A DNA stretch of 64,000 nt from Candidatus Freyarchaeum deiterrae (GTDB lineage Archaea; Asgardarchaeota; Jordiarchaeia; Jordiarchaeales; Jordiarchaeaceae), in the NCBI GenBank assembly GCA_037305845.1, contig CP147778.1, forward strand, positions 2,688,001 to 2,752,000. The letters are read 5' to 3'. Below are positions 7,843 through 34,404 of this stretch, one piece after another; positions within the stretch are counted from its first letter, which is position 1, and every line of letters begins with the position of its first letter. The notes below the pieces were generated by a model. It ran no database searches. It had not been told where the DNA came from and saw nothing but the letters and a program-made list of their open reading frames with translations. The translations under genes and the position numbers were made by a program.

Positions 7843-8007
7843 TTCTATCCAGAGGTCTATCGTCTTCCTTCTCCCTCCATGATTTGTCTCATAAAAAATC
7901 AGTACTAAAATTATACCCCTCTTTTCTTTTATTTTCTTTGGTATTCTGTACTTGATTTACTTCTTATCTTTCCAATACCTTTTCTGCGTTTATCACATTG
8001 CATTGCG

Positions 8008-8672: not shown

Positions 8673-8818
8673 CCCTCTGCACCATTCATTCTAATAAAGT
8701 CTTAAACTTAATTTTTTCCACCATAGATTCGGCATTAGTTTAAGGAAAGGAATACTTGACTCGAAAATGGAAAAGAAGAAGCTCAAAAATGTAAACCTTT
8801 TAACTTTCTAAGTGGGAA

Positions 8819-9528: not shown

Positions 9529-10131
9529 TTGCTCAGCACCATGAAAATGGTGGAAAGATGGGCAGCAGCCACCATAGCACTGCTCGCGGTAAGCATCATC
9601 ACGCTAGCCTACCACTCAACAAAGGTATACTGGTACACCAGCCTAACACTACTGCTGACGCTGGGACCCACGCCCACGGGAATCCTCAGCCTCGCAGTCC
9701 TTAGCGCCTACCCCGCAGAGTTCAGCATAGGGATAAACGCAGGCGTCTTCGCAGGCTTCTGGTACAAACTCTTACTGGACCTAGCCTACCTAGCACCCGT
9801 AGGAGCAGCCCTCTTCACAAGCCTGGTCACTACCCTGTGCTACTCCCTGAGAGAATTTCCGGGCTGCGAAACACCCGACGGCGTAACGGAGAGAATAAGC
9901 CAAATAGCGACTCTGGGCGAAGACCGAGACCAGGTGGAAGTAGCCCTCGCCCTGATCATATTACCATGCATACTAATGAGCGTCCAAACCTACGTCTACA
10001 TCCTAACACCGGTCACAAATCCCCTAAACCTCTTAATCCTAATCATAGTCCTCACACTAAACCTGCTGACCACGTACAATTTCGGCACAAGCATAGGACG
10101 CATCACACAACAGGAAGAAGTGATACGCTAA
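9529..10131 (+). CDS. Hypothetical polytopic membrane protein (about 5-6 TM)
   Basis: GGAGGTG RBS before the TTG start; several 20-residue hydrophobic stretches. Confidence 0.7.
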   Translation: MLSTMKMVERWAAATIALLAVSIITLAYHSTKVYWYTSLTLLLTLGPTPTGILSLAVLSAYPAEFSIGINAGVFAGFWYKLLLDLAYLAPVGAALFTSLVTTLCYSLREFPGCETPDGVTERISQIATLGEDRDQVEVALALIILPCILMSVQTYVYILTPVTNPLNLLILIIVLTLNLLTTYNFGTSIGRITQQEEVIR

Positions 10132-10818: not shown

Positions 10819-10832
10819 TTTATAAATATATA
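10819..10832 (+). promoter_or_regulatory. Candidate BRE/TATA box for the giant ORF
   Basis: TTTATAAATATATA preceded by an A-rich BRE-like stretch, about 150-230 bp upstream of the candidate starts. Confidence 0.4.
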
Positions 10833-11048
10833 CAAAGAAAAATAGGGACGATGCGTCGACAGGGGAAAAGAAGCGGATTAACTATCATGCCATGTGCCGT
10901 AAGGCACAAAAACCAACTCAAATCAAAATCCTGCTTAAATAAATGCGAGGAGCTTAGTTGAAGAGGCTGGATGAATAATGAATGTGCCCCAGCAGGGATA
11001 TCGGGTTAACAATCATGGGAGGATGTTACCATAGGGTTCCTAACCTTC

Positions 11049-14000
11049 GTGTTCTTCTGCGCTCTCTTCATAGGAGCGGACGTCCAACAGATGCAAGCCG
11101 TCCAACAGATAATGGATAACATCTACCAGTACGTGAATATGCCCGATATGCAGCAGGCGGAAAGAGATGGAAACATCGCCCAATGCCTTAACACATTCTT
11201 CCAAGGAGGAGCAATAGGACTATACGAAGGGGGATGGCCCTGGGGGCATGGTTACGTAGCCGACGTATGGGGTCCCGATTGGGAAAAGCCGAAACCAGGC
11301 CATGTCTACGTTTACAACGACACCAGCTACGTCGGAGGCAGAAGAACCCTCTACTTCGAAATAATAAGTTATCCGTACTACGACGTGAACAGCCTCCCCG
11401 ACGGCTTGTTGCGTGAACTGTGCGGTAACTACTCAGACCCCTTAGCCAAACCTGATCCGTTGGTAATCTATCACCGGTACAATGATGAAAAGGTTCCCTG
11501 GGCTGGCGACCAAACCTCACTCTCCACATTTATGGGAAGAATGCTTCTGCTCTCCAAGCTCAGGCACATAGACTACAGTAACCCCGTAAATCTGGCGGAG
11601 CAGTGGTCTAATTATCTGGATAGGTATCAGTTCGATTTTAATGATCTGGACTACATATACCGGAACTTTCCGCTGGTACTGCAGAATCCTTGGTTATGGC
11701 TCCAGAGCGGCTCCAGTCTGAACAGTTTAATGGAGCTTGTAGGCTCCGGTGTAAATCTGAACAACTTCAGCTTCGTGTCTGGAGACAACCCACTATACAA
11801 TTTCTTATGCTCCGTTTGGGGGGCGGAGCAACTGTACTCCCTCTGGGAGGCTAATTTTAACCAAACCGATGCTTGGCAGCTGGTACGCTTTGGTAACGAC
11901 ACTTTCGTGCCCTTGCCCTACTTAGTATCATATACCCATGTTTTGGATGAGATGGGGGTTCTTAGCCCGTTTGGTGGGATGGACTCGGATTCTGAAATCT
12001 ATGGGACAGACAGCAACTGGAACCTTACTCGGAATGGGAACGCTTCCCTGTACAGTTACGAGTTCACTCTGAGCAGTATTTTCAACTCTCTAGCAAACAG
12101 CACCCTCATCTCGGATTGTAGCAATGACTCGGAGTGGAATGCAACCGGGCAAAACGTTACCCTCTCAACCGATGGCTACAGCATAATAGTTAACGTAACG
12201 GGAAAATCCTCAAACACCACCACCCTCAGCTACCGTTTAAACCAGCCCTTAAATCTGTCCAATTACCAATCTCTGCTCCTCTGGTTCAACGTGAACGCCA
12301 CCCGAAGCAACTTCACAACCCTAAAAATAACCCTATACGACCAGCAAGGAAACTGGAAAACGTACTCCAATTGGACTTATAACACATCTCAGAGATGGGA
12401 GCGACTCACACTGGACTTGGATGAGCCGGACTCCAAAAATGGAACCTTCGGCAATCTAACCAACATAACGATAACCGCTACCCCCAATCAAAACCTCAAT
12501 TACAGTTTATCAATTGACGATGTGAGAGTTAGTTCCCGTATATTGTGTGAGTGTCTCTGGAACACCGACTGGTCGTATCAGCTCCTCAACGGGACCGGAA
12601 ACCTCACCACCACGGTTTACGGATACCCCTACGTTTACGATTACCCCTACTCCCTCGGCCTAGAATGGAACTTAACCAATGTAAACGGCTCCGCTAAATA
12701 CGTTTACAATCCTCGGGGGAACTGGAGCCTCGACCCCGAGGGCTTCCTAACCTTTATGCTCTACGGGTTTGGGACTGAGCAGCAGAACGCCACCCTAACC
12801 CTGCGTCTGTGCACCGACCAGAACAACTCCTTTAACTACAGTCTGGGAAAAGTCGACTGGTATGGGTGGAGGAAAATCTCCGTCCCCCTGAAGCTGATGA
12901 ACAAGACTGGAAGCGCCAACCTCTCCCGCCTAGATTACCTAGAATTCAAACTGGATAGTATGAGTAACGGAACCGGTAAGCTGGTTGTTAGCGATATTCG
13001 CGTCGAGCCCGCCCAGTGGACTAAAGTAGAATTCGTGGTTCCCGACACTCTGAACAACGCTGACAAAGACAGTTATCCCTTTATAGACCTCTACTGCTGG
13101 AACGGCTCCAAATGGTTAACTGTAGGTCGGTGGGACGCTAACGACTCCAGCGCTAGTGTAGGATACAGCGTTCTCTGGAGCAACCTAACCCTTCTGGACG
13201 GCACCAACGCCAGCAAACTATTCTCCAACCAGAGCCTGTGCCTGTACCCTGTGGGAAACGGTTCCAAAAACCCTTACTCCGGAGCTGCGGGAGCTATAAA
13301 CTACACTACCACTAATAAGAACTCCGCGGGCTTCGCGGTAATGCTTCCACCCCCAGCCTACGGCAACAGGAGCAGCGTCAAGTTCAAGGTGGAGGTACAC
13401 TACAACTCCACGGGGGACGTTATCAACACCAGTAGTTACCCGTTAGCTCTCCTCTATTTCAACTCCACATTCACGAATCTCAGTCTCACCGCTAAGGACT
13501 GCTACGACATCTGGCTGGATCATACCTTTCTGAGCAATTGGACGTATGATAATTGGTCTGTGAACAGCACCCACACCAGCAACGGCGACATACTGGATGT
13601 CTGGACCAAGTACAAGGGCAGCAACGCCAACTACACCTGGTACACAAACCTGTCCAACGTAGTGGACGTAGGGTGTTACCCCAACGTATACCTTGTCGTG
13701 AAAATTACCAGCTACAATAAAACCGACGGCAGTGGCACGAATAAAAACCAGTTGGGAGTGGAAATCTACGATAATGTCAGCAAGGCGTGGAAAATCAGCA
13801 GCACCTACGTCACAGGTAACGCTACCAACTATACCTACGTGTGGCAAATGAATTCCTCCTGGGATGTGGGAAGAGTAGGATTCTTCTTCAATTACCGAAG
13901 CAGCGGCGGGCAGCAGGAGGTCAAAATAGACAGCGTCAAACTGGTAACAGTGCAGAACAGCAGCCAGTACCAGGAAAACCAGTACCCATTATACACGGGG

Positions 14001-17000
14001 AATGGTTCCAGCGTATTGTTCCTGAACCTCAGAACAGCGGCGGGTGCGGGTAAACAGCTTCGGGAGTTCCGAGTTAACGGTGGAAACGTCACCCTGCTGT
14101 CAGCAGTGTTAAGCAGTCTGGGCAACTGGACGGTGGACTCGTTGAACTCCACAGTCTTTGTAGCGGGCGGAGACAGCGTTACCATTCAGGGCTCAAACCA
14201 CATGTACCTGAACTACACTTTCTCTCCCCTGTTGAACATAAATTATAGTAACACCTTCATGGATGTGGTTTACACTTCCTCTTACTCCTATGATGAGAAC
14301 ATCTCAAACCTAACCCTCCGGGTGAAAGTGGATAATAACTGGTTGAACTACACCCTCCCGCCCAACAGTGAGGAATCGCAGAGGTTCCGAATCCCCCTCA
14401 ACGGTTCCAATCTGGGGGCAATCTGCTTTGAGCACAGCACAAACACCAGCGAGGACTGGTTCTCCATTCAGTCCATAAACGTTTTCCATCTCACAAACAT
14501 CACACAGTACTTGCAGACCGCCGTTGGATACTGGAACCAAACCAGTCTCAGCGTCCCCGGCTACTCTCCGAGATTCACTCAGATATTGAATGCCACGGAG
14601 TTGCCCGCGAGTTTATCCGCGTGGGCGTACGTGAACGGAAGCAATAGCAGTTCGCTCACCGTAGAGTTCTTCGATGAGAACGGCACCTTCCTGAAATCGG
14701 ACACGGTATCCGTGAATGGATCCAATTGGCACCCGGTTTGCCTAGTGGACTTTACCCAGCCTGAGAACGCTTCAACTCTGAAGTTTATAGTGGCGGCTGA
14801 TAAACTGGATCACGCTTACCTCTGCCCCTCAATCTTGACCAGCGGTGGAATATATGAGGGTTTCAATAGTCTTAAGGGCTGGACTGCTATAGGCAACGGC
14901 ACAGCGGAGAATAACAGTCAGGGATTAACGGTAACACTAAACAATGGGACTCTAACCCTATGGACCGATGTTTCGGAGCTGGGATTCGACTTTTCAAGTT
15001 TCGACACCATAGCCGCAGCGTACAACATAAGCGACAACGTGAATGCAAGCATAGTTTTTGACTGGCTTCTTGTAGATGCAAACGGAAACCAGACGGATTA
15101 TCAGTCATACGTGAATCTGTCCAAGGATTCAGCGTGCGCCGTTGACTCTATATCCAAATATTATAAGACTTATGCTCCCATACCCTTCCCATTTGAGGAT
15201 TGTGTGGAAAACTTCTCTTACACGAATTTTGATTTGAACCGAATTATGCTCAACTTCTCGGGAACCGGTCAGGCTAACGTATCCTGGGTTCAGACCCAAT
15301 ATATTCCAGATTGGGACTTCATATCGGTAACCGATAACATAACATCAACCCACCTGTACGTTAACTGGCTCACCAAATCCCTAGTGTTCGGAGGCGTCTT
15401 CAACAGCAGTACCATGGGTAAGCCGAACTGGGTGGGGCTTATGCACACCTTCTTAGAGGATGTAAACCTCACAACCAATCCGGTACTGGAAGTGGATTTC
15501 CGAACCCAGAACACCAGCCTCAAACTAGGCTTGGAAGTCTTGGTTTATGATGAGCTGGGCTTTCAATGGGTCTGGAAGCACCTACCAGCCTCAGATGTCA
15601 TTTTCGAGCACCCCGTATACACGCCCGCCTTTGTGAATGTTCCCGATTACCTTCGGTCAAAGGACGGGCGTCTTTACACCTCCCTCCGAGCCATCCGACT
15701 GTACGTGAATGATACTACTGGTAACTATTCAGGACTGGGAAGCATGGAGGTATCAAGCGTTTGGCTGCATCCCGCATGCGGCGCTCCCCTATCGTTCCTA
15801 GTATTGGATGATTTCGAAGCCGACGACCTTTCACGGTGGCAGGAGGAGGCAGGCTGGCTTCTCCCCTACACCGACCTCACCCAGTGGAGCAGCAACCAGA
15901 TAATCTGCGGCGGAAACATAGCATACGGTCCCCCAGGTTGGGAGGACGACAGCTTCCAGACCGGCTGGTACAGCGGATACAACTACTCCTCAAACGGCGA
16001 CGTCCTGACCTGGACCCCCTCCAACTACCCGTTAAACGTCTACAACATCACTGGCGGTACCTCAGACACCGAGGTCGAGTTAAGCACATATCTCAATACT
16101 CGGTGGTTCCGTCAAGGGGACACTCAGATGAGGCTGGGCCGCGAGGACACGACCTGTTGGGTCTACGTACCTCCCTATGCTTATCCTGTGACTGTATATG
16201 TTTACAAGCGATCCTTCGTCCGGTTTCCGCTCTACATCCCCGAGAACGCTATTATAACCAACGCTTGGATAAGCCTCAAGTCTAAGACCAACGAAACCAA
16301 TAGCTTCCCCTGCGCCATAAACCTGCTGGACTCCGGCAACTTTCCAGAATTCACATCCGACCCTTGGGATTGGCCGACATCAGGTGGCGCTGTGGGTTGG
16401 ACCGTGCAAAACACCACTGCGGATTGCTGGTACAACACCTCAAACATTTCATCACTAGTTCAACGCTTCATAAACACGACGGGATACTACCCTGGGAAAT
16501 ACGTGGGATTCAGACTTATGGACAACGATACCGTGGGGGACTGGAAGACTTGGTACACTTACGAGAGCGATCCACAGAACGCCCCAAAGCTCTATGTTTC
16601 CTACACTGTACCACAGAACTACTACATCTCAAAGGAAATCAATGTGGATGTCGGCGAGTATCCCTGCCTCGTTTTCAGAGCCAAGTGTAACGTGGACAAT
16701 AGCACCATCAAGGTGGCGCTGGGAACGCCGGGGGACCGTTACTATTATAAAACTTCCTTCGAACTCAACCAGAACTATCGAACCTTCGCCGTTCCCATAT
16801 CCAACGGCTTCAACGCCACCAGCATCACGGTCTTCTATCCAGAATTTCAAAACGTGAAAGTGGACATAGACTACGTGGGGTTGCTAAGGTCGGTAAGCCT
16901 AGAGGGCACGGTGATGAACAGCTCCCTCTCGGTGAACGGAGGATTCGAAAACGGCGACTTCTACAACTGGACCCTGTCGCAGTGCTACGGGTGCACAGTT

Positions 17001-26000: not shown

Positions 26001-29000
26001 CCTAGAACTGGCATGTGGCTCAAACGAGTTATCAACGCCAACTGGATTCTGGGGTCTTTCATGGGCGCTCTTTATTGGCTTGATAGTCTATTTGATACAG
26101 AAACATCTATCCCTGACTGGAGCGAAGGTGTTCTCTTCGGCGTGTATGTTGACGACCTTGCTTCTCCAGTATTAACCAATACAATCTATTTGGACCTGTC
26201 TAATCGTCTTATACACTTTGGACCAATGACACCAGACTACTATCCATGGATAGGTATGTTTAATGATTTCTCTGAACGAGGAGCGTTAAACCGTATTGTT
26301 CAAGCTATAAATAATTTAAGTGACTCTGATGCAGATTTGCTTTATTCGTTTCTTGCATGCAGCGGGTACAATGATTTAGGTCTCATGAAATTTGAAAGAT
26401 TGTACAGCGATAAGGTTTTCTGGTACGGTGTGGCTTTCACACCACTTGATTTCTTATTTAACATTTTGAGCCTTAGCTGCCTTAATCCTACTACATTTAC
26501 ATGCAAATTCACGGCTTGGGATAAGGCAGGCAATGAAGGATACGCTTATTCCACGTTTGGCATTATTCCTTACGCTGATCGATTTTTCCTTCAAATGCAA
26601 GGATCAGATAATTGTTTCTATGGATACGCATCGTTTGATGCTTACGTTAAAACGATTCAGCAGGAGATTGAGAACGCCCACCAGCAGGGAAACGGAACCA
26701 GTCAGGGAACCAGTTCAAGTCAGGGAAACGGAACCAGTCAGGGGGGAGCTGTCCAGTATGTAGACATGTCAGTTTCCACGCCTCTATCAAACATTATTGT
26801 GAATTCTAGCAGTCTGTCCAGTGGTTCTGATACACTTAACTCCCAGAGTTGTGGTGTTTGTGGCGGAGGAACTGGTAGCGTTAGTGGTAATGAGACTGGC
26901 TGGGCTCCAGTCGAGAACCTGGCTACCGTGGAGCAGGCTTTGAACTATGAATTAAGCGGGGATGTTTCGTTCCTTCCCTGGATGAAATTTAATTTCCGAG
27001 TGTTTGGAGCACCCAGAGACATTAGTTTGAATGTAAAGTTCGGTGTAGCCCCGTGTGTTCGACTGTTCTTTGACCCGCTGAGCTTTGAGGAGTACGGAAG
27101 CAAGGATGATAGTGTGCTTCTACGCGCTACTCCTGATACTTGGAACACTTTCACTATACCCTTGTACCGGATGGCCAGGTCTCTCGGCTTGTTTAATGGT
27201 TTAAACGCTCCCACGAACATTAGCACGATTAGTGTCAGCGCTTACGGTGAGCGTAAGACTTGGGAGAGGCGGGCGGTTTTCGACAACTTCTGGGTCGCGA
27301 CACCGGTTCCTCTGGTTGAGGATTATGCTGAGAAGGCGGCTCTCTCCCGCGACAACTATTACAAGGTTCTAAATGTTACTAAGGAGAGTAATTTTGAGGT
27401 TTTGAAGCAGGACATTTCTGAGGTTTTCGCGGCGAGCTACATGGGGGACTTTGAGTATCTGGCAGCGGTTTTGGGGAATTTCACTCAGCACCTGTTCCCG
27501 TCGGGTGAGATGGCTGAGTTCACGGGCGCCTCTGTCCGAGTCGTGAGCTACAACAACAGTCTGAATGAGAGTGTGCCCCTGTTCGTGGTGTACAGCTTCC
27601 CAGAGGGGCTTGAGAATGTTTCCCTGTTAGCTGCCTATAACTATACTAATATTCCTAACCTGGATCTTTCACGCGAGGCTGTGCTTAATGCTAATATCAC
27701 GCAATTGTGCCAGCTTTTGGCTCAGGGCGGAGGTGTGCTTAAGCCTTACGGCTTGAGTGATGCGGATTTAGCGTACTTGCCGTATGGTGCGGCGAGCTTC
27801 GTTATTGTGAATGATACGGTTTGTATAGACCGTTTGAGTGCGAAGCCGTGTACCATTCAGACTGTGTTGGCTACGATTGCTAGTATTGCGGAGAGGGTGT
27901 GGAATCAAAAGTGTGTGGCTCAGGTTGTGGAGCAGGAACAGGAGGCCCAGCAGATTGAGGCTTTGAGGGCTTTTATTAACGAGGAGGCCTATCGGGTTGA
28001 TACGTTCAATAAGTTGTTGGCTGCCTTGCAGTGGGTTAACTACATGCACCCCTACAACTGGGACCGAAAGAGCTTCGATACCCTTATCGACCCCAACACC
28101 AGTCCTTACTGGCTCTCCTACACTTACGCTAGTTGGGGCAACGCGACCGGTTACGAGTTGCTAAGCGAGTGTCTCGCTAACATAACCCAGATGCTGGACT
28201 TTGGCGACTACTTCGGTGCCCCACCAGTCTTCATCACATCCGGCGAGTATAACCGTACTGCGGATGCAGCGGGCGAGAAATGCGTACTCATCTACAAGGC
28301 CCTGGAGAGAAACCCCAGCTGGAATTACCTTTTGGGCGCGGTTCAGGGAGAGGTTTTATGTGCAGTGTTCAACGACACTAATGTTTTGAACGTAGCTAAG
28401 GAGTTCGGGAGAAGGGCGAACTCCACACTAGCGGATGTTTACGTTTACCTCACGGAAATGGCTTTCATGTACACCAGACCCTACAACACAGAGGAAATAA
28501 TGAATAGCCCGGCACTTGACGCCTTAGGACAACTGTTCAGTGGTGCTACAAACATTGTTGACCAGATTGGTAGCCAAGTTCAGAATCTGATTCAATACTT
28601 CACAGCCGTCCCATTTGTCAACTTGGTTTCCACTCTCAATGCTCTCTTTACTCAGAAGTTCGACCAAAAATGCATATCGCTGGGCATAGATAATTACGTG
28701 GAGTGGCTCGCCCAGCAGGACGAAGCGAGTCTCAATGACTTTGGCGATAATAATACTTATGATTCTGGAACTATATCCGCATTAGACCCTGGAGAGACGC
28801 TAGGCGAATCAGCATCAAATAATTCCATGCCCACAAATGGTTATGATGTTTCCAGCAGCTCAGTGCCTCCAAGCACTGGCCAAGTCATTCAGCAAAACAG
28901 TTTATACTCCAACGTAAACGCCATATGGGATGCAATCTTAACAAATCCGCTTACCATTTACGCCTATGAATACACTAAATCTGATTGGAGAACTCCAAAG

Positions 29001-32000
29001 CAAGGACAAGCGGTTACTCCCCCCAATGGTCCCATTCTCTACATGGGAAGCAGACAAAGCGGCGGGAAGTTAGGTTTCGAATCTTCCAGATTCCTATATA
29101 ACATCATTAAAATCTTGCAGAATACATTCCAAGAAAGAGAAGGCTCTGGCTCCGAATTTACTCGCAGTCTTCTTGCTTATTACATAGGTAAACAACATAG
29201 AGATTTATCGAAACTAGCCAGCCTTTACCCGAATATAGGTGTAGACCAAGCACTAGGAGTTTATATAATTGATACCACAAACACTCTAGTTGACCCAACT
29301 ACAGGCATTGTATTTCCCATCGATGATAAAGAACAACCCACAGGATTCTGGGACTTTGGCATAACCGTCCAACTCTCACTGGTTAGCTACGGCGACGTAG
29401 ACGGCGGATTCATAGATGAGGCATTCATCATCCAAAACGACCCCACCACCTGTCTAGCTAGAAAACTGTGGCTCCAACAAGTAGACAGCCAAGGCAAACC
29501 AATAATCACAAATGATAGACTAATCCGACTAGGACTAGGATACTATGAAAGAACAGGCGAAACTTTACACTTCCAAAGCTGCATAGACGACAAAACAGGC
29601 GCAATAATAAGACTCCCGCTATGGGACATGGGATTCAACCCCAACACTATAGAACCCGGCAAAAGTGACTACGTAATCAAACTAGACCAAATATATGAAG
29701 ATGGACGTAAATTCGACACAGGCAAATTCGATTGGAGTAAGGCACAGCCAACCTTCGAAAAGACAGGAGAAGCGATGATTTGGGGAAAGATAATACCCAA
29801 CGGGGATAAATGCATTCTAAACCTAGTAAGACAAAACATAGATTATTTATTACCAGCATCGACAGACGTAACAGATGACCCTTACAGTATTTGGTGGACC
29901 AGCTCTACTCAATTAGGAACATTTAGTGATGGAACTTTACACGCAAAGTGGAATGGCGGAGATTTACCCTCCCTCTTGGATAACTTGATGAACGCTTTCG
30001 GAGTAAACATAGGCGAACAAGATATGATTCGCCTTTACAGCAAGGATTACATGCGCCCAAGTCAAGGAGGCCAATCTCTTAAAATAATGAAATGCATATC
30101 GCAGATGCTAGATGGAATGAGCATAGCTTGGATGGCTGGCATGGCTCGAAAGCCAATCAGTTTTGATAAGGTCAGAAGTGTTCTTGGACAGACTTTTGTG
30201 GAGCAATACTTTAAAGCATACCTAGAAAATGGAAGACACATCAACGATAAAGGCTTAATGGAAGGAAGCGATAGATACGCTCTGGAAATGCTTCAAGGAA
30301 GCGAAATATGCAACGTGGATCCAAACGGCGGCACCAATCGCATTAACCCAATATTTTATTCAGTCGACATAGACCCCTCAATACTAGATCAAACAACTCA
30401 CACGGGATACAGTTTACCAAGAGGAGACATGCCCCTATTCAAAGTCCCAGCTTCAGAATTCAAAGACCAATTACCAGATTCAATAAAGCCCGACGAAAAA
30501 GGCTATGTTTTACTAGGAATCGACATCCCAACCAGCGAAGAAAAAGGACAACCAGTTGTATTCATACCAATATTCACGAAAGACGCCCCCATAAGCCACA
30601 ATAATAATCCCAGTGACTTTACCCAAAGAATAACGGACACCAAATCCCCAGTACCAGTCGTATCAATTATGCAACAGTTCTGGAACAGCATAGAAAAATA
30701 CGCAGTATACACATATAATGGAAAAGAATACAAACCACTCCTGAAAACAGAAGAACCAACAACTGAGAAGACGAACATCTATTCTGATTCTGAATACACC
30801 CCCACGAGTTTCCTAGAAATATTCCACATGCTAGGCATTCTAGAAAATATATGCGCCTTATTCGCAACACACACTGGTGCTAGCGAAGATGCAAAGACAC
30901 GCAGAGAAACTCTCAGTCTCGCGTATTTCTTTTCCGAATTGAGAGGAGTCTTAGTAGACGAACCTAAAACATGCTTGGAACTATTCAAGGCATTCGGAGG
31001 AGATAAGGTGCTGGCAGAATTACGCAAAATCAAACCAATAATACCGTACTCCAACATGGCACAATTAGGATGGTTTACTCTAACAGGACGAACACTAGAA
31101 GATGTTAAAAATGCTTTCCCTGAATGTAAAAAAGACATCGAATCGCTGCTTCAATTATGTAAATCCGGAGAAAACATAATCCCCACCCAAGTAGATTTAC
31201 TAACCATTCTTCTCTCATACACCGGAGCTCAAAGAGCTATAGGACAAAAAAATATCTATCTCCCCATAAAAGTGGACACCACAGACCACACTTATAAAAT
31301 TGGAAGCGCGGTCTTCAATATTAACACAGAAGACTTAAAATTACTGGACAATGTAGGAGTGCCTACAGACGAGTACGGAATCACCTTCCTAGCGGCTAAC
31401 TATCGTCAGTCTCCAGATTTGAGTTTCACCCAACTTAAAGCAAAAGACGAACAACTATTATTAAAAGTGGGCGGAATACAAATACTCAACACAGTTGAAC
31501 CAGCAAGCATCAGAGAAGTTTTCGGAGGGAGAGTCGCCGGCGTACCAAAGGAGAAGCAAAACCCACAAATTTTCGACAATCTGCTAAAATTCACAGAAGT
31601 GAGTATACCCGGTAGTTACATGAGGGGCGGAGAAGAGATACAGCGTCCTTACTCATCAGGTTATTACTCCTTCGTTGAATGGCTCATGTCAGAAAAAATG
31701 AGACTCGGCGAAATTTTTGATATTGGTAAAAAAGAGGGAATGGACAAATTAAATTACATGGACTTACTGATTAAAGGATGGGGAAACGAGCGCTCCACAA
31801 AAATTCTAGAACAGCAGAAAAGCCTTGACAATGAATACCACACCCGCCTCGAAGACTTATGGGCACTATACCTCCACCAGAGAACCAGAATTTCCCCAAC
31901 CGAAAGAAGCAGCATGGACACATTCGGCACACTGTACCAAATCCTAAAAGGAGACATTACTGAAGAAATGGGCAACCAGCACGCGATAGACTACGTGGCT

Positions 32001-33299
32001 GAAAAATTCATGTGGAGCAACAATCCAGACGTACAAATCATAGGAATAAAAATGAAGCAGATGGAACTAAGACTATTAGACCCCAGCTTCGAAACATTCG
32101 AAGCCCGACCAGAAACCCTAGGCGCCGGCAAAGGCGCACTCGCACTTTACCTAACACAGTACAAAATTTATGAAGGAAGCGAAGGACCATACATCAAAAA
32201 CGTGCCCATTATACAGGGAGGAGCGGAAACAGGAATAGACCCAGTGGCACTAGAAGAAGGAAAAATGCAACTCATGGCCGAAATATTCTACAAAGGAGGA
32301 AGCGTAAAAGAACTACAAGAAATGGGATTCACAAAAAGAGACATCACACTAACACTGGACAGATTCGAAACAAACATACTCGAAGGCAAAACCGGAGAAA
32401 AAATGACATGGATACAACAATGGGGCATACAACACTGGGCAGACAAACAAAGATTCCTCCTGGACCCATCCACAAAAACACTCGGAGAAATGATGAAAAG
32501 TGGACTAATCCTAGACGGAGTCTCAACAGTAATAGGAGCAGCAAAAATGATACCCTTCCTAACAATAGTCGCACCAATCCTAGAAACAATAGGCTACACA
32601 GCAGTCGCAGCCCTAGAATCAATGACAACAGCCCCAACACTAAAGTATAATGCGACATCGGGAGAATTCTATGTTGGTCCAGGCGGAGCCGTAAGCAGCT
32701 TCCTAGGCAACCCCGACTGGAACCTCCTGGCGGGAATAGCGATGACAGTAGGCGTCATGCTCACAAGCCTGATGCAGTTCGGAGCCGGCCCATTCAAAGA
32801 AATCGAGTTCAAAATAGACATGATGAGCGTAAACATAATACTCGCGGGAGCACAGCAGGCAATGATGAGCCTCGGAATGTGCTACGTCCCAGAAAGCACC
32901 ATAGCAGACATAATGAAACCAATACTGGGAATCGTAGGAGTAAGACTACACCCATACATAGGCGCAGCATTCGAAATAGCCGGACTCCTATCCATGCTAC
33001 CACAGGTAGACCAGTTCTACCACGAAAGAATATGGCCCATAGCAAAACTCGCACTCGGAGCATCACTAATGGGCACAGAACAAATAATAGTAGGATCAAT
33101 AGCAACCGCAGCAGCAATGACCGCAATAGGAGCCATCGAAAACGCATGGGAAAACCAAGTATTCGGAGACCCCTGGTACCAAGACATACAAATAGACTTC
33201 AAACCCATACTCGCAAACCTACCGTTAGAAACGTGGGGAGTACAGGACTACGTAAACAGCTGGATAACCAAAAACCTGTACGGAATGTGGTACATGTAA
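11049..33299 (+). CDS. Giant (7416 aa) cell-surface glycoprotein with a C-terminal non-glycosylated region and hydrophobic helical bundle; candidate adhesin/effector-delivery protein
   Basis: Uninterrupted 22,251 bp ORF; hydrophobic N-terminus; very dense N-x-S/T sequons; recognisable CBM-like, DNRLRE-like, DUF2341, GATase-like and Ig-like modules. Confidence 0.9.
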   Translation: MFFCALFIGADVQQMQAVQQIMDNIYQYVNMPDMQQAERDGNIAQCLNTFFQGGAIGLYEGGWPWGHGYVADVWGPDWEKPKPGHVYVYNDTSYVGGRRTLYFEIISYPYYDVNSLPDGLLRELCGNYSDPLAKPDPLVIYHRYNDEKVPWAGDQTSLSTFMGRMLLLSKLRHIDYSNPVNLAEQWSNYLDRYQFDFNDLDYIYRNFPLVLQNPWLWLQSGSSLNSLMELVGSGVNLNNFSFVSGDNPLYNFLCSVWGAEQLYSLWEANFNQTDAWQLVRFGNDTFVPLPYLVSYTHVLDEMGVLSPFGGMDSDSEIYGTDSNWNLTRNGNASLYSYEFTLSSIFNSLANSTLISDCSNDSEWNATGQNVTLSTDGYSIIVNVTGKSSNTTTLSYRLNQPLNLSNYQSLLLWFNVNATRSNFTTLKITLYDQQGNWKTYSNWTYNTSQRWERLTLDLDEPDSKNGTFGNLTNITITATPNQNLNYSLSIDDVRVSSRILCECLWNTDWSYQLLNGTGNLTTTVYGYPYVYDYPYSLGLEWNLTNVNGSAKYVYNPRGNWSLDPEGFLTFMLYGFGTEQQNATLTLRLCTDQNNSFNYSLGKVDWYGWRKISVPLKLMNKTGSANLSRLDYLEFKLDSMSNGTGKLVVSDIRVEPAQWTKVEFVVPDTLNNADKDSYPFIDLYCWNGSKWLTVGRWDANDSSASVGYSVLWSNLTLLDGTNASKLFSNQSLCLYPVGNGSKNPYSGAAGAINYTTTNKNSAGFAVMLPPPAYGNRSSVKFKVEVHYNSTGDVINTSSYPLALLYFNSTFTNLSLTAKDCYDIWLDHTFLSNWTYDNWSVNSTHTSNGDILDVWTKYKGSNANYTWYTNLSNVVDVGCYPNVYLVVKITSYNKTDGSGTNKNQLGVEIYDNVSKAWKISSTYVTGNATNYTYVWQMNSSWDVGRVGFFFNYRSSGGQQEVKIDSVKLVTVQNSSQYQENQYPLYTGNGSSVLFLNLRTAAGAGKQLREFRVNGGNVTLLSAVLSSLGNWTVDSLNSTVFVAGGDSVTIQGSNHMYLNYTFSPLLNINYSNTFMDVVYTSSYSYDENISNLTLRVKVDNNWLNYTLPPNSEESQRFRIPLNGSNLGAICFEHSTNTSEDWFSIQSINVFHLTNITQYLQTAVGYWNQTSLSVPGYSPRFTQILNATELPASLSAWAYVNGSNSSSLTVEFFDENGTFLKSDTVSVNGSNWHPVCLVDFTQPENASTLKFIVAADKLDHAYLCPSILTSGGIYEGFNSLKGWTAIGNGTAENNSQGLTVTLNNGTLTLWTDVSELGFDFSSFDTIAAAYNISDNVNASIVFDWLLVDANGNQTDYQSYVNLSKDSACAVDSISKYYKTYAPIPFPFEDCVENFSYTNFDLNRIMLNFSGTGQANVSWVQTQYIPDWDFISVTDNITSTHLYVNWLTKSLVFGGVFNSSTMGKPNWVGLMHTFLEDVNLTTNPVLEVDFRTQNTSLKLGLEVLVYDELGFQWVWKHLPASDVIFEHPVYTPAFVNVPDYLRSKDGRLYTSLRAIRLYVNDTTGNYSGLGSMEVSSVWLHPACGAPLSFLVLDDFEADDLSRWQEEAGWLLPYTDLTQWSSNQIICGGNIAYGPPGWEDDSFQTGWYSGYNYSSNGDVLTWTPSNYPLNVYNITGGTSDTEVELSTYLNTRWFRQGDTQMRLGREDTTCWVYVPPYAYPVTVYVYKRSFVRFPLYIPENAIITNAWISLKSKTNETNSFPCAINLLDSGNFPEFTSDPWDWPTSGGAVGWTVQNTTADCWYNTSNISSLVQRFINTTGYYPGKYVGFRLMDNDTVGDWKTWYTYESDPQNAPKLYVSYTVPQNYYISKEINVDVGEYPCLVFRAKCNVDNSTIKVALGTPGDRYYYKTSFELNQNYRTFAVPISNGFNATSITVFYPEFQNVKVDIDYVGLLRSVSLEGTVMNSSLSVNGGFENGDFYNWTLSQCYGCTVESSGLVAEGVHAGKITCNGVGQWLSRTVPGDNIVKFSIYKPGSFNTSSKYFFQLYDAGSGKKIIFYLVDSFDTNVSLYGDSKNKAIPWSQKSGTYKDYYIDPHALYNLYWNNTDPTQVEIRFGVEANQSSSYMIIDGFGVWDRGSGLAPNNIAIDSSMPLDNHDSLKLSYSFPSESTDVCTYTFTIDRDFSQEKYFSLWVYRDSKKWNNTLDICLRCKDGSFGGWNMTMNWTQDWKKLVLPLDNFTYQSESVVSGQLEKIVISLKDQYGYVKEDDWILISGLLFGHQYNFTLTSESYSGNGAVRIQNPSGGWVKVFASGNETGTIPFTPDELLCFAAMPKGDTPWAVMVDLTLKDGSTATLVWYRGSRPIPSEYPYDYLTQIDSNPDNWNEYRLNLFDAVKNYAEQMGRGGFQSIDKVAFLVGPGEVVFDSVLVRNVPENLDTSPLSVLSSPVIFFYDEAYPCSCGVGGNDWSLVNKTFTTLEAGLKNMNISVVWADAQETRKLMSSYPRSLLVIAGSIVPDTICGREGYSVLENFVERGGTVLFLSDDYAPVSAVGREGYETLWLNGIGLEYLLDAKSPTTELFNYSSLKPLNITMDPTEMGGSLGALNRLNASGFAWLIPYLRYQNLWVETYYYNSSEQLGRGVCVRPQDSLGYVAEFPLSMVSEGNDTGVVVKFVSDHFINLWLDTSGSNFDDYERPLPGVSDEKFMDYYGEMKAGNWTFTTDIPSEEYYASADFSASWHVYLNTSLSSDRNDSITATYSVNPNSNISISEFPFFTATILTIGNYTRLKLEAEVSGQYYTLFDDNASDWRKYVWYLPNICAEGEFQGMRVTMYENCSDGAGNASVTLTNLGAYTVAVPEYGFPKSLNVDFQNSSLYDYLFSGDSDYPFMGFKFNDTKDSVYTITREYPQPYSFLDYPYLEFASSGTEGNYTVELWLQKKCSEQSYAWYLLDCFNGSDSGSSQRVMGYNLYAKFNAYYEQFKGVTADLKGWKLILKGNAQQNDSKNCLFTLKYIALTDYYTGWRIYPGGMNYSGGQGYGNGGGSGLGMEQGLGASENSSLSPSVSSVSSSSSSGQDSPAISESVKSSGVDVSEIVSKEDYCLSPSAWSVYNSSGGVEARIVSGEYVELWMRRAIADDWAMFRYDLGEGVNVSQTNFLDFKMRVRPEGGLRLVAYVEVSSGGGLVELGEYSADGVWISWRLDVLSLLAKAGVNNSLVTGLVFKLVCEGGSGRYDCYADLSYLKFSGFASWRGGLSTLFYNDGVYSVFHFESLRGATIIYSIPPDYRGFSLTFNANYFLEKTSCKGVNMFFYDFTQGSWVNVLTLDRMESWENVSVGVDGNFVRGYDGRFLVYLAPLYSEDIDVNLRLDSAEVVATTSTQNYLKQSGLLTMSLDGTSGSGGGSLPTDLDKVFDHLGGEAVWFGEDYYHSGSSVSDWLTGWSYRKPVRVNNSGSVNLYAFQVKLTLQGTNPSQVGYVDFGKIAPDGSDIRFTAADGLNPISFWIESWNNTNKTATVWIKCPLLGNNSVTVYYMYYGFKNAESLSNGEDTFLFFDDFSGDILNPGKWIVTGNVTVNNGVVTIGGGSVESRIESTYKYGNMTIVQCRAQVSDNWSTPTQITRNYSVDGSASDSELKTTPSFFGPTTYENYYTSSSMSLGYDGFYTFYPSHRTFVRFRLDIPVGSTISNAYISLKSSINESTSGNQSDMWLLNYYNCPDFSGGTPLQDMPTAGNPVYWTLPVTYQDNWYNTADISSLIQSYIGMANYQPGSCYAGFRIGEGTMVYPLKSWYQCDSNASNAPRLVVSYIPPLNQSTISAVVSLSDYSDPDPGDVITLGRVDGNTYPGKWVGVVRDYPPSSYYVNSTGWSADTDWHVFQVEWRGANSTRLWRDSSIYDGFLNYSNVPDGDNPLRVMHETNATQRSGTKLLVDYTFVRKYAQVEPTVSYDLEQLPPSVPPASSSYVPVDRLSGSEMVHLYWHMLANVSSIDDYYLEFRLRGDVGAVFENNVQGEANAKLDLYKEFMLSLRGVIDPPVNYTAGGDYRNVNMTVRLYVQYFYANNSAIPNGTILFNETTINYLDNNNWISYVLDVPSKAPAGASKWTPLIRTVGRPADSFCHLFLDDMKCPQTYQTSQQNTSANIAWVAGDGHGHVLNCSSTGSGDSTIWDQVLNIPFSPDLMFNFDINPINGGGGGGGGWWLGLKFRVQLYEFLTSYNVTLNVTSPTSYVGPMDVNLSFENGTCFKGSLFVMEDNATHVPFTVRNQTVLGDYVLNMSISILANVSAGETKQYKIFWSDYDNPLPDLVSPNLRVVNWTDNTQGKNVSVNCTATDANMSRMVLHYYDGSANCSKDMVLKSGFYVGNFSYSGSYQFWVEAFDNCSNPMRTWTYPGNPPVLNVNMSESEVYIRDSIPAGTDSVWLYYSDGAQKCLNSTEDSLTYGYRLDCVRGGWNQFLRLPYSDILEIFTLRYESLPSWQPMVLERIEGGGLGNSSYMLDNIKWGLYPRTVLDYSSQSAMNFYFSYDPSIPVVKIVSGRIISGGAALLNATCSDIPSQTLNETTAGIGRVEYTVSNSTSVVYNSTMVKQHADNNDTTYVYTDFWYDYFDSTTLPDGFYKLNVSAWDNSGNRADDTQYIIVYNSRPKVEFLNVYDNLSVGRVLSVLARTTDVFDVTNTSLTVTNIGTGNTTVYNMKEGYFQKQNIWTYNVLFNQSGRYTLSCNATDYFGVGSDVVRVNISVDASLPSVIINSPQPNEWVSGQYLLNVTAFDDNNISSVRWRVYVIANETTGRLEIPYGYSDVWNDTSSIGGGIYTAVWNTTSLNASESLIHRYVVVFKVSDNNTIPNTVYSNVTICVDNTVPYIIDGPSVVAQNNVEEGKNVEGFTKETNENGTVIYTKFVNASLTFAVSDERLMKYYDIEHNTSQANLEAYLGCLGMTILDEYENGSRFYSDCSVMSGSNGVFFVVENYTLVSGMHNLTLTVSDLAGNTNRSIRKVDIVVDQTAPIVIPILPRTGMWLKRVINANWILGSFMGALYWLDSLFDTETSIPDWSEGVLFGVYVDDLASPVLTNTIYLDLSNRLIHFGPMTPDYYPWIGMFNDFSERGALNRIVQAINNLSDSDADLLYSFLACSGYNDLGLMKFERLYSDKVFWYGVAFTPLDFLFNILSLSCLNPTTFTCKFTAWDKAGNEGYAYSTFGIIPYADRFFLQMQGSDNCFYGYASFDAYVKTIQQEIENAHQQGNGTSQGTSSSQGNGTSQGGAVQYVDMSVSTPLSNIIVNSSSLSSGSDTLNSQSCGVCGGGTGSVSGNETGWAPVENLATVEQALNYELSGDVSFLPWMKFNFRVFGAPRDISLNVKFGVAPCVRLFFDPLSFEEYGSKDDSVLLRATPDTWNTFTIPLYRMARSLGLFNGLNAPTNISTISVSAYGERKTWERRAVFDNFWVATPVPLVEDYAEKAALSRDNYYKVLNVTKESNFEVLKQDISEVFAASYMGDFEYLAAVLGNFTQHLFPSGEMAEFTGASVRVVSYNNSLNESVPLFVVYSFPEGLENVSLLAAYNYTNIPNLDLSREAVLNANITQLCQLLAQGGGVLKPYGLSDADLAYLPYGAASFVIVNDTVCIDRLSAKPCTIQTVLATIASIAERVWNQKCVAQVVEQEQEAQQIEALRAFINEEAYRVDTFNKLLAALQWVNYMHPYNWDRKSFDTLIDPNTSPYWLSYTYASWGNATGYELLSECLANITQMLDFGDYFGAPPVFITSGEYNRTADAAGEKCVLIYKALERNPSWNYLLGAVQGEVLCAVFNDTNVLNVAKEFGRRANSTLADVYVYLTEMAFMYTRPYNTEEIMNSPALDALGQLFSGATNIVDQIGSQVQNLIQYFTAVPFVNLVSTLNALFTQKFDQKCISLGIDNYVEWLAQQDEASLNDFGDNNTYDSGTISALDPGETLGESASNNSMPTNGYDVSSSSVPPSTGQVIQQNSLYSNVNAIWDAILTNPLTIYAYEYTKSDWRTPKQGQAVTPPNGPILYMGSRQSGGKLGFESSRFLYNIIKILQNTFQEREGSGSEFTRSLLAYYIGKQHRDLSKLASLYPNIGVDQALGVYIIDTTNTLVDPTTGIVFPIDDKEQPTGFWDFGITVQLSLVSYGDVDGGFIDEAFIIQNDPTTCLARKLWLQQVDSQGKPIITNDRLIRLGLGYYERTGETLHFQSCIDDKTGAIIRLPLWDMGFNPNTIEPGKSDYVIKLDQIYEDGRKFDTGKFDWSKAQPTFEKTGEAMIWGKIIPNGDKCILNLVRQNIDYLLPASTDVTDDPYSIWWTSSTQLGTFSDGTLHAKWNGGDLPSLLDNLMNAFGVNIGEQDMIRLYSKDYMRPSQGGQSLKIMKCISQMLDGMSIAWMAGMARKPISFDKVRSVLGQTFVEQYFKAYLENGRHINDKGLMEGSDRYALEMLQGSEICNVDPNGGTNRINPIFYSVDIDPSILDQTTHTGYSLPRGDMPLFKVPASEFKDQLPDSIKPDEKGYVLLGIDIPTSEEKGQPVVFIPIFTKDAPISHNNNPSDFTQRITDTKSPVPVVSIMQQFWNSIEKYAVYTYNGKEYKPLLKTEEPTTEKTNIYSDSEYTPTSFLEIFHMLGILENICALFATHTGASEDAKTRRETLSLAYFFSELRGVLVDEPKTCLELFKAFGGDKVLAELRKIKPIIPYSNMAQLGWFTLTGRTLEDVKNAFPECKKDIESLLQLCKSGENIIPTQVDLLTILLSYTGAQRAIGQKNIYLPIKVDTTDHTYKIGSAVFNINTEDLKLLDNVGVPTDEYGITFLAANYRQSPDLSFTQLKAKDEQLLLKVGGIQILNTVEPASIREVFGGRVAGVPKEKQNPQIFDNLLKFTEVSIPGSYMRGGEEIQRPYSSGYYSFVEWLMSEKMRLGEIFDIGKKEGMDKLNYMDLLIKGWGNERSTKILEQQKSLDNEYHTRLEDLWALYLHQRTRISPTERSSMDTFGTLYQILKGDITEEMGNQHAIDYVAEKFMWSNNPDVQIIGIKMKQMELRLLDPSFETFEARPETLGAGKGALALYLTQYKIYEGSEGPYIKNVPIIQGGAETGIDPVALEEGKMQLMAEIFYKGGSVKELQEMGFTKRDITLTLDRFETNILEGKTGEKMTWIQQWGIQHWADKQRFLLDPSTKTLGEMMKSGLILDGVSTVIGAAKMIPFLTIVAPILETIGYTAVAALESMTTAPTLKYNATSGEFYVGPGGAVSSFLGNPDWNLLAGIAMTVGVMLTSLMQFGAGPFKEIEFKIDMMSVNIILAGAQQAMMSLGMCYVPESTIADIMKPILGIVGVRLHPYIGAAFEIAGLLSMLPQVDQFYHERIWPIAKLALGASLMGTEQIIVGSIATAAAMTAIGAIENAWENQVFGDPWYQDIQIDFKPILANLPLETWGVQDYVNSWITKNLYGMWYM
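16023..16610 (+). other. DNRLRE-like domain 1 in the giant ORF
   Basis: RSFVRFPLYIPENAIITNAWISLKS...WYNTSNISSLVQ...APKLYVSYT; paralogous to domain 2. Confidence 0.65.
18351..19060 (+). other. Class I glutamine-amidotransferase-like (flavodoxin-fold) domain in the giant ORF
   Basis: VIFFYD...LEAGLKNMNISVVW...LLVIAG...LENFVERGGTVLFL alpha/beta pattern. Confidence 0.5.
21306..21670 (+). other. DUF2341 domain in the giant ORF
   Basis: WSYRKPVRV...DGSDIRFTAADG..ISFWIESW...VWIKCP...YMYYG...NGEDTFLFFDDF; matching tail RKYAQVEPTVSYDLEQ near 22790. Confidence 0.85.
21840..22415 (+). other. DNRLRE-like domain 2 in the giant ORF
   Basis: RTFVRFRLDIPVGSTISNAYISLKS...WYNTADISSLIQ...APRLVVSY. Confidence 0.65.
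23550..23573 (+). repeat. (GGT)7 GGC microsatellite encoding a Gly8 linker
   Basis: Read directly from the sequence. Confidence 0.9.
23890..26570 (+). other. Tandem bacterial-type Ig-like (Big) repeats in the giant ORF
   Basis: Repeated D/N-x-x-P starts and A/S-x-D-x-x-GN ends (SAWDNSGN, ATDYFG, VSDLAGN, AWDKAGN). Confidence 0.75.
26685..26744 (+). repeat. 18-bp tandem repeat (QGNGTS-QGTSSS-QGNGTS-QG linker)
   Basis: CAGGGAAACGGAACCAGT at 26685 and 26721, with a variant unit between. Confidence 0.9.
32502..33150 (+). other. Gly/Ala/Met-rich hydrophobic helical bundle at the giant ORF C-terminus
   Basis: At least five hydrophobic or amphipathic segments, e.g. LLAGIAMTVGVMLTSLMQFGAG and IIVGSIATAAAMTAIGAI. 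Confidence 0.65.
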
Positions 33300-33345
33300 T
33301 TAACAAAACAAAAAATTTTGAGAAGAATATACACTCTAATTGGAG

Positions 33346-34404
33346 TTAGAATCTAACTTTTATTCTTTTTATCAAATTTGGAGGTTTAGCCTTCAGCTCT
33401 TCTTCAGTAATCAGTTCGCTCTGCTTCGGAAGTCTGGGAAGATAAAACCATCTGAAACTAGTAAAGTCCTTATGAGCATCATCCAAACCCCTAGATAACC
33501 CAGCATACCTCTCACAGTTATCACAGTAAACACAAATCACATCCCCCGTTTGAAAATGCCAACCCTCAAAGTCCTCAAGCTCCCACCTCCTCTTAGACAA
33601 CCTGTCCAAATACCCCCATTGAAGACGTTCCCCGCACAGACACAGAAAAAACGGCTTATCGAACTTTCCCACACCATCCACTACCTCCCGCGGCAATTTC
33701 AGCTCCTCAGCCAACACCTCAAACTCATCCAAATCAAAGTCATACTCCCACCGATGGTGCCAACCATGCAAATACTCGTAAGCAGCTTCCTCAACATACT
33801 TATAAAGACTCATCGAAGGCTCGTACCCCGAGGGAGCACCTAGATTATCAGGAGAACCGAAAAACTGATAAACGAGTTCCAAATCATCATTATCCGCTTC
33901 CGGGAAATCCACCGAAGGATTAACAAGGTCAGCTGGAACTATTTTCGAAGCCTCTTCAGAGTCCAACTGTAGAAGCGCCCTACCAGCAACTTCACGAACC
34001 AGTTTCGACTCACTGGAGTCGTTAAAAACCACCTCAAGCGCTGAGAAAGCTTTTCGATCCCCGATTTTGCCGAGAGCGTAGGCGGCGAACTTACGCGTCT
34101 CCGAATGTTCACTCTTCAGAAGCTCCACGAGTGGCTCAACCGATGGCGTACCGACTCCTATAAAGGCGTCAGTCTCGGCTTTCATAAAGTAACGATAGGG
34201 CAAGTCACTTTTCTCTCCATGCTTCTTCATCCACTTTATGAGAGTTGGAATCGCTACTGTATCACCGATAAACCCAAGTACCTGACAGGCAAAAATAAAC
34301 TCACCAAAAGTGACATCCGGATTATCCCTCACCGTTAGTGGATTTTCCAAAAAATCCACAACACGAACTGCAACATCCCTCAAAGTACTATGCTGTTCAT
34401 TCAT
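33346..34404 (-). CDS. HEAT-repeat (PBS-lyase-like) protein with a C-terminal Cys-rich, probable Zn-ribbon domain
   Basis: SVEPLVELLKSEHSETRKFAAYALGKIGD and LVREVAGRAL; CLCG...CVYCDNC. Start set at ATG 34404 because the upstream extension is low-complexity. Confidence 0.8.
   Translation of the reverse strand: MNEQHSTLRDVAVRVVDFLENPLTVRDNPDVTFGEFIFACQVLGFIGDTVAIPTLIKWMKKHGEKSDLPYRYFMKAETDAFIGVGTPSVEPLVELLKSEHSETRKFAAYALGKIGDRKAFSALEVVFNDSSESKLVREVAGRALLQLDSEEASKIVPADLVNPSVDFPEADNDDLELVYQFFGSPDNLGAPSGYEPSMSLYKYVEEAAYEYLHGWHHRWEYDFDLDEFEVLAEELKLPREVVDGVGKFDKPFFLCLCGERLQWGYLDRLSKRRWELEDFEGWHFQTGDVICVYCDNCERYAGLSRGLDDAHKDFTSFRWFYLPRLPKQSELITEEELKAKPPNLIKRIKVRF

Follow-up and report, generated by a model that had tools for sequence, protein, structure and literature searches.

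The 64,000-nucleotide stretch analyzed here (the window) covers positions C1:2688001-2752000 of the closed, 3,576,204-bp genome of Candidatus Freyarchaeum deiterrae. A preliminary description, made from the letters alone, had reported a single open reading frame (ORF) of 7,416 aa and had inferred an Asgard origin. The frame is indeed intact (11049..33299, plus strand; the database entry is a 7,402-aa protein, its gene call beginning at Met15), and the origin agrees with the same-genus relatives, Candidatus Jordarchaeum madagascariense and Candidatus Freyarchaeota archaeon, the host belonging to the Freyarchaeia/Jordarchaeia. The giant gene, here called A, is a composite. A glycoprotein scaffold is followed, behind a sharp junction at residue 5817, by a C-terminal cassette of different character, and a gene for a HEAT-repeat protein adjoins the cassette. 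A second gene of the same genome, paralog B (7,252 aa, C1:1810195-1831953), carries a different cassette on a closely similar scaffold; beyond B, the genome contains no scaffold paralogs. The features of the locus are as follows.

9529..10131, plus strand: multi-pass membrane ORF of 200 aa, duplicated along with the giant gene
11049..33299, plus strand: giant gene, an open frame of 7,416 codons
11049..11081, plus strand: short hydrophobic N-terminus (aa 1-11), kept in paralog B
11049..28499, plus strand: glycoprotein scaffold (aa 1-5817), from sequon enrichment and likeness to paralog B
21450..21698, plus strand: DUF2341 domain (aa 3468-3550), Pfam E 1.4e-23
24630..25970, plus strand: Ig-like domain region (aa ~4528-4974), Big_13 at 29.9 bits, above cut-off; Big_3_2, Big_7 and Big_3_3 weak
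28446..28499, plus strand: junction with the conserved motif YLTEMAFMYTRPYNTEE (aa 5800-5816), after which homology ends, from DNA comparison with locus B
28686..28928, plus strand: S/N/G-rich low-complexity linker (aa ~5880-5960), read from the sequence; adjoining residues have a predicted local distance difference test score (pLDDT) <50
29163..31925, plus strand: globular alpha/beta "payload" (aa ~6039-6959), a fold without a known match, from an AlphaFold2 (AF2) model
31926..32495, plus strand: helical connector with a helix-turn-helix (HTH)-like three-helix unit (aa ~7065-7114)
32496..33296, plus strand: acidic Gly/Ala-rich hydrophobic helical bundle (aa ~7150-7416), from alignment A3 and AF2
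33346..34404 (to 34482 in a longer form), minus strand: HEAT-repeat protein with a five-Cys C-terminal domain, HEAT_2 E 1.6e-11

Comparison of loci A and B reveals the conserved scaffold with variable C-terminus and downstream gene that the preliminary description had proposed to look for. DNA homology extends over window positions 9099-28499 with 75-85% nucleotide identity and stops exactly at codon 5817. The scaffolds share ~90% amino acid identity over aa 1200-5800, dropping to 57-75% across the first 1,100 aa and in some internal stretches. Past residue 5817, identity is 17-35% over the C-terminal 1,600 aa, with 44-54% in the last 250 aa, which correspond to the helical bundle. The downstream genes differ as well, since both encode HEAT proteins that are not orthologous. 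The motif YLTEMAFMYTRPYNTEE, which immediately precedes the break, is retained in A, B and two further copies, P0004 and L012. Polymorphic toxins typically exchange their C-terminal module behind an abrupt junction that follows a conserved motif, and such an arrangement is found here.

P0004, a fragment of 2,705 aa from another species, stands at the same distance from scaffolds A and B (65-85%), but its cassette belongs to the A type (40-65% identity to A versus 17-34% to B). Scaffold and cassette therefore have discordant histories and were joined by recombination. The two scaffolds are younger than the divergence of the cassette types of A and B, or were homogenized after it, and recombination at the junction linked one scaffold to two old cassettes. 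The cassette also diverges faster than the scaffold, orthologs included. Upstream, the duplicated unit takes in the 200-aa membrane ORF, whose counterpart (L006:2828-3430) is 87% identical in amino acids and 82% in DNA, a relation that indicates purifying selection. This ORF has no family match. Its two copies both lie in the source genome, and it is absent from the other genomes among the six of the genus; it may be part of the system.

The junction also separates two opposite patterns of N-glycosylation motifs. In scaffold A the sequon N-x-S/T is found 228 times versus 77 expected (3.0x, z 20), with the reversed motif S/T-x-N at 74 versus 78 expected (1.0x). Pooled over 15 cassettes, the sequon is reduced to 20 versus 104 expected (0.19x), and the reversed motif stands at 86 versus 104 (0.83x). 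ORFs of the genome without transmembrane (TM) segments (n=328) have a sequon ratio of 0.92x. The switch from enrichment to depletion coincides with the junction. Selection for sequons in the scaffold argues for an extracellular position of this part. Because the avoidance in the cassette is specific to the sequon, with the reversed motif neutral, the pattern suggests that the cassette meets the oligosaccharyltransferase but must stay bare, a reading that assumes N-x-S/T glycosylation, which is established for archaea generally and presumed for the host lineage. The depletion is present in stand-alone cassettes also, which would be explicable only if those cassettes are exported too or act as a recombination reservoir.

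Within the cassette, the S/N-rich linker noted in the preliminary description is disordered in the AF2 model, and its length differs among homologs. The AF2 model of aa 5960-7150 (22-row alignment) has a pLDDT of 73 and a predicted template modeling score of 0.77, and in it a multi-domain body of mixed alpha/beta structure spans residues ~6039-6959. The earlier remark that ~1,200 aa of this region belong to no recognized family proved correct, with no match in Pfam, NCBIfam, PADLOC or PDB-profile searches; the PDB profiles return nothing for either payload or bundle. Foldseek finds no match for the payload in PDB or BFVD, which is weak evidence given that the payload was searched as one 1,191-residue model; for the bundle, the best PDB match has an E of 1.5. 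Two ESM Atlas look-ups gave scores of 0.81-0.89, with low recognition. In A, B and P0004, no TM helix separates the scaffold from the cassette; the only mildly hydrophobic stretch (aa ~5849-5868) is interrupted by Asn, Lys and Asp in sequences of both the A and the B type.

The C-terminal tip is hydrophobic, Gly/Ala-rich and helical, as had been described. Beyond the first residues of the protein, TM-like segments are confined to aa 7153-7363, with Kyte-Doolittle peaks at aa 7153-7186, 7224-7242 and 7345-7363 and about five hydrophobic helices. AF2 builds about ten helices here (pLDDT 58), and the bundle ends in a conserved aromatic tail, YGMW (YGMW(YM)). Per 100 aa, it has 3.8 K+R and 7.5 D+E residues. 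The resulting net charge of -3 to -6 falls outside the values seen in polytopic ORFs encoded by the genome (n=96; median +1.9, 2% quantile -2.2). Most of the 17 other glycoprotein ORFs have a single TM helix followed by a charged tail, and the giant protein does not match the ordinary archaeal C-terminal anchor, either as one TM helix with a basic tail or as PGF-CTERM. The acidic charge, together with the single-TM layout of the other glycoproteins, implies that the tip is not an ordinary anchor. Sequon depletion argues the same way against the plain membrane anchor that the preliminary description had named as the alternative outcome. The composition of the bundle would fit a domain that stays soluble until it inserts.

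The partner gene of locus A is convergent with the giant gene at a distance of 46 bp and encodes 352 or 378 aa, depending on the start. What had been described as a small HEAT/Zn gene has HEAT repeats by the HEAT_2 match, and its five Cys residues are conserved in an ortholog. A-type partners, namely this protein and its orthologs beside A-type cassettes in two other genomes, share 43-45% identity and keep the Cys residues. Locus B has a different, all-HEAT protein of 388 aa in the same position, and B-type partners are 62% identical to one another. The partner therefore follows the cassette type, A-type with A-type and B-type with B-type. A HEAT gene adjoins the cassette in every locus with flanking sequence (genomes G000, G006, G009 and G010, and one metagenome contig of 59% GC), and three extra cassette-related loci of the source genome also carry one. 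As HEAT_2 occurs in only ~30 ORFs of the 3.58-Mb genome, this linkage is not due to chance. Partners of cassette types that are missing from the source genome match generic HEAT similarity only there (40-51%). Apart from a doubtful upstream extension of the window partner, these proteins have no hydrophobic segments, and Pfam gives no longin domain match in the partner protein. Divergent from the partner gene is a Ras-family small GTPase (34681-35214, plus strand; Pfam Ras E 4e-50), for which no counterpart was found at locus B.

An exhaustive HMMER search with aa 6217-7416 against 1.84 billion representatives retrieved 18 proteins; word-based protein searches returned only the giant protein itself and one 1,371-aa relative. 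Six-frame searches detect the family in three or four of the five other genomes of the genus, but in none of five sister-family genomes and none of ~390 other genomes of the phylum. The family is confined to one genus, of which one fragmented genome has at least seven copies. A tree of the bundle separates at least six cassette types, several of them common to different species.

The cassettes occur in several forms. Those of A, B, P0004 and L012 are borne by scaffolds. Stand-alone cassettes of ~1,370-1,440 aa (L020 with 1,441 aa, L044 with 1,426 aa, L023, P0009 and P0022) always begin just past the linker, and in P0005 and P0018 the cassette is placed behind an Arg/Glu-rich helical N-terminal domain. 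Others are truncated at the 5' end, to 868 aa (L019), 205 aa and 116 aa (L026). HEAT genes lie near most of the stand-alone and truncated copies, which are dispersed in the genome and not arrayed behind the main gene. A related piece is a 1,697-aa ORF (G000:C1:1600451-1605544, minus strand) that has an acidic, disordered, repeat-rich N-terminus and neither TM helix nor bundle. Over the C-terminal ~800 aa it shares 33% identity with the payload of L024, a different cassette type, and a 283-aa HEAT gene (C1:1599602-1600450, minus strand) directly follows it.

Remnants are also found. Just downstream of the HEAT gene of locus B is a pseudogene-like bundle fragment (L007:11561-11802, equal to G000:C1:1833561-1833802, plus strand). 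The fragment derives from a bundle of foreign type, most similar to L020 (60% over 43 aa), and looks like a displaced older 3' end. At G000:C1:853144-859570 (minus strand), a small P0019-like gene combines a different, 230-aa N-terminal domain with the last part of the bundle. It is broken by two frame changes, which could reflect decay or mini-introns, and is followed by two HEAT proteins of ~715 aa and a paralog of the HEAT/Cys partner. In another species (L026:5242-7564 / L046:3-1266), an FG-GAP beta-propeller protein is followed after 40 nt by the 116-aa A-type bundle fragment, and an ortholog of the HEAT/Cys partner lies 2 kb downstream. Either the locus is a remnant, or the same tip has a different carrier here.

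The module content of the scaffold was described only partly correctly. The DUF2341 and Ig modules are both present, the latter with Big_13 above its cut-off. The CBM-like module amounts to a weak match of 22.6 bits, below the cut-off, and the DNRLRE-like and GATase-like modules have no match at Pfam E<=1 or NCBIfam E<=0.01. No RHS/YD, haemagglutinin/FHA or RTX repeat family of Pfam is found in the giant protein at E<=1 (eight tiles). The proposed helical stalk-like region (aa ~5300-5817) is Ala/Glu-rich in composition. The scaffold (12000-24000) has a GC content of ~0.50, compared with 0.36-0.40 for the flanking genes and 0.42-0.45 for the cassette. The step is consistent with a mosaic gene but could simply track amino acid content.

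The N-terminus is hydrophobic, as stated before, yet, counted from the first usable start codon, the segment is just 10-12 residues long, or ~16 with upstream in-frame codons included, and has no charged n-region. The first usable start codon is GTG in the giant gene and ATG in paralog B. A hydrophobic segment likewise opens the 17 other ORFs of the genome that are strongly enriched in sequons, which makes a short signal peptide or signal anchor likely. In both paralogs, an in-frame ATG situated 78 nt before the giant ORF (10971-11009, plus strand; L006 ~4153-4194) is closed by TAA. The resulting mini-ORF has 12-13 codons, with a 3-nt indel between the paralogs that preserves the frame, and may be a leader peptide or merely a conserved 5' untranslated region. 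A bulge-helix-bulge (tRNA-type) intron at this 5' end was also considered; folding around the upstream ATG...TAA gave z values of 0.48 and -0.18 in the two paralogs, and the idea was dropped because neither has significant structure.

Upstream of the duplicated unit are the type III CRISPR-Cas genes (1-7842, minus strand), which confirm the defense locus noted previously. They comprise a RAMP fusion, a Cas10 palm domain, a Csx1/Csm6 CARF-HEPN protein (3487-5127, PADLOC E 3e-126) and Cas6; no tandem repeat array is found at 5000-11100. As this locus lies outside the duplicated unit, its proximity is probably coincidental and functionally unrelated. Further downstream in the window are KaiC-like ATPase genes at 36310-37197 and 38075-38806, and three paralogous short-chain dehydrogenase genes within 8 kb (43452-44438; 48907-49800, plus strand; 50121-51116, minus strand; adh_short_C2 E 1e-67 to 1e-70). 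The window contains no tRNA genes. According to a published analysis, the Freyarchaeia genome has no discernible integrated elements (PMC11529989), and neither this mobile-element and defense paper nor the genome paper (PMC11291895) mentions the giant proteins.

The reading we favor, which we hold only tentatively, is that the cassette is delivered as an effector and works in the manner of a polymorphic toxin. The giant protein would be exported through Sec as a heavily N-glycosylated fiber of ~5,800 aa, joined at residue 5817 to an exchangeable core cassette. The latter consists of the linker, a globular domain of ~1,000 aa that would be free of glycans and the acidic, Gly/Ala-rich hydrophobic bundle of ~260 aa, and it is inherited along with a soluble cytoplasmic HEAT-repeat protein. 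The fiber may hold the cassette away from the producer cell. The bundle would remain water-soluble until membrane contact and then insert, most probably in the membrane of a neighboring cell, with the unglycosylated globular domain acting at or beyond the target membrane. In the producer cytoplasm, the HEAT protein could bind the matching cassette, either as an immunity-like neutralizer or as a chaperone before export. Support comes from the junction, the discordant histories, the sequon contrast, the linked HEAT genes, the cassette copies elsewhere in the genome, the charge of the bundle, its difference from ordinary anchors and the bacterial precedent of HEAT-repeat immunity proteins. The data show the architecture, the recombination junction, the sequon contrast, the HEAT linkage and the distribution and types of the family; export, delivery, membrane insertion and the role of the partner are inferred, as are antagonism, predation and immunity.

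A number of observations weigh against effector delivery. By default, a Sec-exported chain that ends in hydrophobic helices would stop in the producer's own membrane, and no release or cleavage motif was identified. The pore or effector domain that the preliminary description had placed at the C-terminus is not recognizable, as searches by sequence and by fold (Pfam, NCBIfam, PADLOC, PDB profile, Foldseek) bring up no family of toxins, nucleases, proteases or pore-formers, and the model of the bundle itself is of low confidence. Rather than a set of different toxin folds, the ~20 cassettes are all homologous end to end, their types are old paralogs common to several species, and their conservation peaks at the hydrophobic tip, opposite to what is seen in classical polymorphic toxins. 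The HEAT gene has no fixed orientation, being convergent or co-directional. Stand-alone cassettes and P0005 have no signal peptide, and a payload-like domain occurs in the clearly cytoplasmic-type 1,697-aa protein. The proposal of a toxin system therefore stands as far as the layout is concerned, but lacks a recognizable toxin domain, the diverse folds and the variable tip. With one cassette family, no recognizable toxin domain and a conserved tip, the locus is not filed as a polymorphic toxin system.

In the main rival explanation, the protein is a self-anchored adhesin or receptor whose bundle is a permanent, unusual multi-helix anchor in the membrane of the producer itself. The globular domain would then be its membrane-proximal base, and the HEAT protein a cytoplasmic adaptor that binds the aromatic tail or loops and so couples the surface fiber to the inside of the cell, possibly to the Ras-like GTPase. 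The first bundle helix is hydrophobic enough for stop-transfer (Kyte-Doolittle 1.85), conservation within the cassette is highest in the bundle and its YGMW tail, extended peptides are typical ligands of HEAT/ARM proteins, and the GTPase gene is divergent from the partner gene. Yet the acidic bundle does not follow the positive-inside pattern seen in polytopic proteins of this genome, most other glycoproteins of which make do with one TM helix and a charged tail. The HEAT partners differ greatly between types although the tail is conserved, and locus B has no GTPase. Permanent anchoring also leaves unexplained why a 1,000-aa outer domain should avoid sequons, why the junction is sharp and why cassette copies exist without scaffolds. 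We consider it rather unlikely, though worth serious attention.

Two further alternatives assign the cassette to other places or purposes. It could serve, with its partner, in kin recognition or in membrane merging, whether among archaeal cells or between them and syntrophic partners, so that the whole would be a device for recognition, tethering or fusion and not for killing. A fast-evolving cassette with several types per genome within one genus would suit such a role, as would a membrane-active-looking tip on a long glycosylated fiber and the lack of a recognizable toxin domain. A soluble cytoplasmic partner without an obvious surface role does not, and Foldseek searches revealed no similarity to known fusogens or recognition proteins; this appears quite improbable. 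Slightly more improbable still is a machine on the cytoplasmic face, where the cassette would be tethered inside the cell by its tail and work with the HEAT protein, the fiber being connected via the linker through a channel that the bundle perhaps forms, as in autotransporters. The Lys/Glu-rich, cytoplasm-like composition of the payload speaks for this, along with the weak HTH-like unit, the absence of a signal peptide from stand-alone and P0005-type cassettes, and the payload-like domain of the TM-free 1,697-aa protein with its acidic disordered N-terminus and adjacent HEAT gene. However, A, B and P0004 have no TM helix at the required position, the sole mildly hydrophobic stretch there being interrupted by Lys, Asn and Asp; cytoplasmic-type ORFs of the genome are free of sequon-specific depletion (0.92x); and a polar chain threaded through the cytoplasmic membrane has no precedent.

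Returning to effector delivery, its most far-reaching version would be an Asgard-native, contact-dependent delivery system in which a bare effector cassette, displayed on the exported glycoprotein fiber, reaches the inside of neighboring cells by way of a new acidic helical translocation domain, with cytoplasmic HEAT immunity proteins and exchange at a fixed junction, an invention parallel to bacterial contact-dependent inhibition (CDI) and Rhs systems with entirely new folds. This version is doubtful.

Asgard archaea are the closest prokaryotic relatives of eukaryotes, and their contact, competition and exchange with other cells are little known. The locus offers a defined and testable candidate, with an exchangeable cassette of ~1,600 aa, a confident unmatched fold, a membrane-active-looking tip, a dedicated HEAT partner and a clean junction. 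The contrast between sequon enrichment and depletion in one polypeptide also provides a simple, computable marker for archaeal domains that may be exported and deliberately left unglycosylated. Should permanent anchoring be the true explanation, the bundle would represent a new way to fix giant glycoproteins in the archaeal membrane, coupled to a cytoplasmic HEAT protein.

Giant genes are known from other Asgard archaea. The aloposons of Heimdallarchaeum are tandem giant genes beside tRNA integration sites, with ParA-like genes upstream (Wu et al. 2022, PMC8813620). Their products of 3,000-6,000 aa are comparable to the protein described here, which unlike them is encoded by a single giant gene with no tRNA in the window and no ParA-like upstream genes. 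With the ordinary surface glycoproteins of its own genome, the giant protein shares the hydrophobic N-terminus and the strongly sequon-enriched ectodomain; where those have a single TM anchor, however, it has a sequon-depleted cassette of 1,600 aa with about five acidic hydrophobic helices.

Pore-forming colicins and the T domain of diphtheria toxin are water-soluble helical domains with buried hydrophobic helices and acidic residues that insert on a trigger. The bundle resembles them in its acidic, hydrophobic, helical make-up, with no match in sequence or fold and a model of low confidence. Pore-forming colicins are made without a signal peptide, and immunity is conferred by integral membrane proteins encoded by convergent genes. 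The stand-alone cassettes likewise have no signal peptide, and the partner gene is often convergent here too, but the HEAT partners are soluble and the order of domains is different.

The closest parallel in layout is found in polymorphic toxin systems, which are rare in archaea and bacterial in origin according to a 2012 survey (PMC3482391); HEAT-repeat immunity proteins (Imm-HEAT) are recorded among the bacterial ones (Zhang et al. 2012, PMC3482391). In contrast to these systems, the host here is an archaeon, the modules make up one homologous family of ~1,400-1,600 aa without a recognizable toxin domain, the extreme tip is conserved instead of variable, and the partner is large (280-715 aa) and often convergent. 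Nor does the locus contain the RHS/YD, haemagglutinin or RTX repeats or the dedicated secretion genes of CDI, Rhs and MARTX systems. On the other hand, the scaffold of 5,800 aa, sequon-rich and furnished with DUF2341 and Ig-like domains, corresponds to the long surface stalk of CdiA, Rhs/YD and MafB systems. Homology ends sharply after a conserved motif, and the C-terminal module has a history different from that of the stalk. A variable gene lies directly downstream and is inherited with the module, its immunity role here being putative, and stand-alone and truncated copies of the module are found elsewhere in the genome, as in polymorphic toxin systems.

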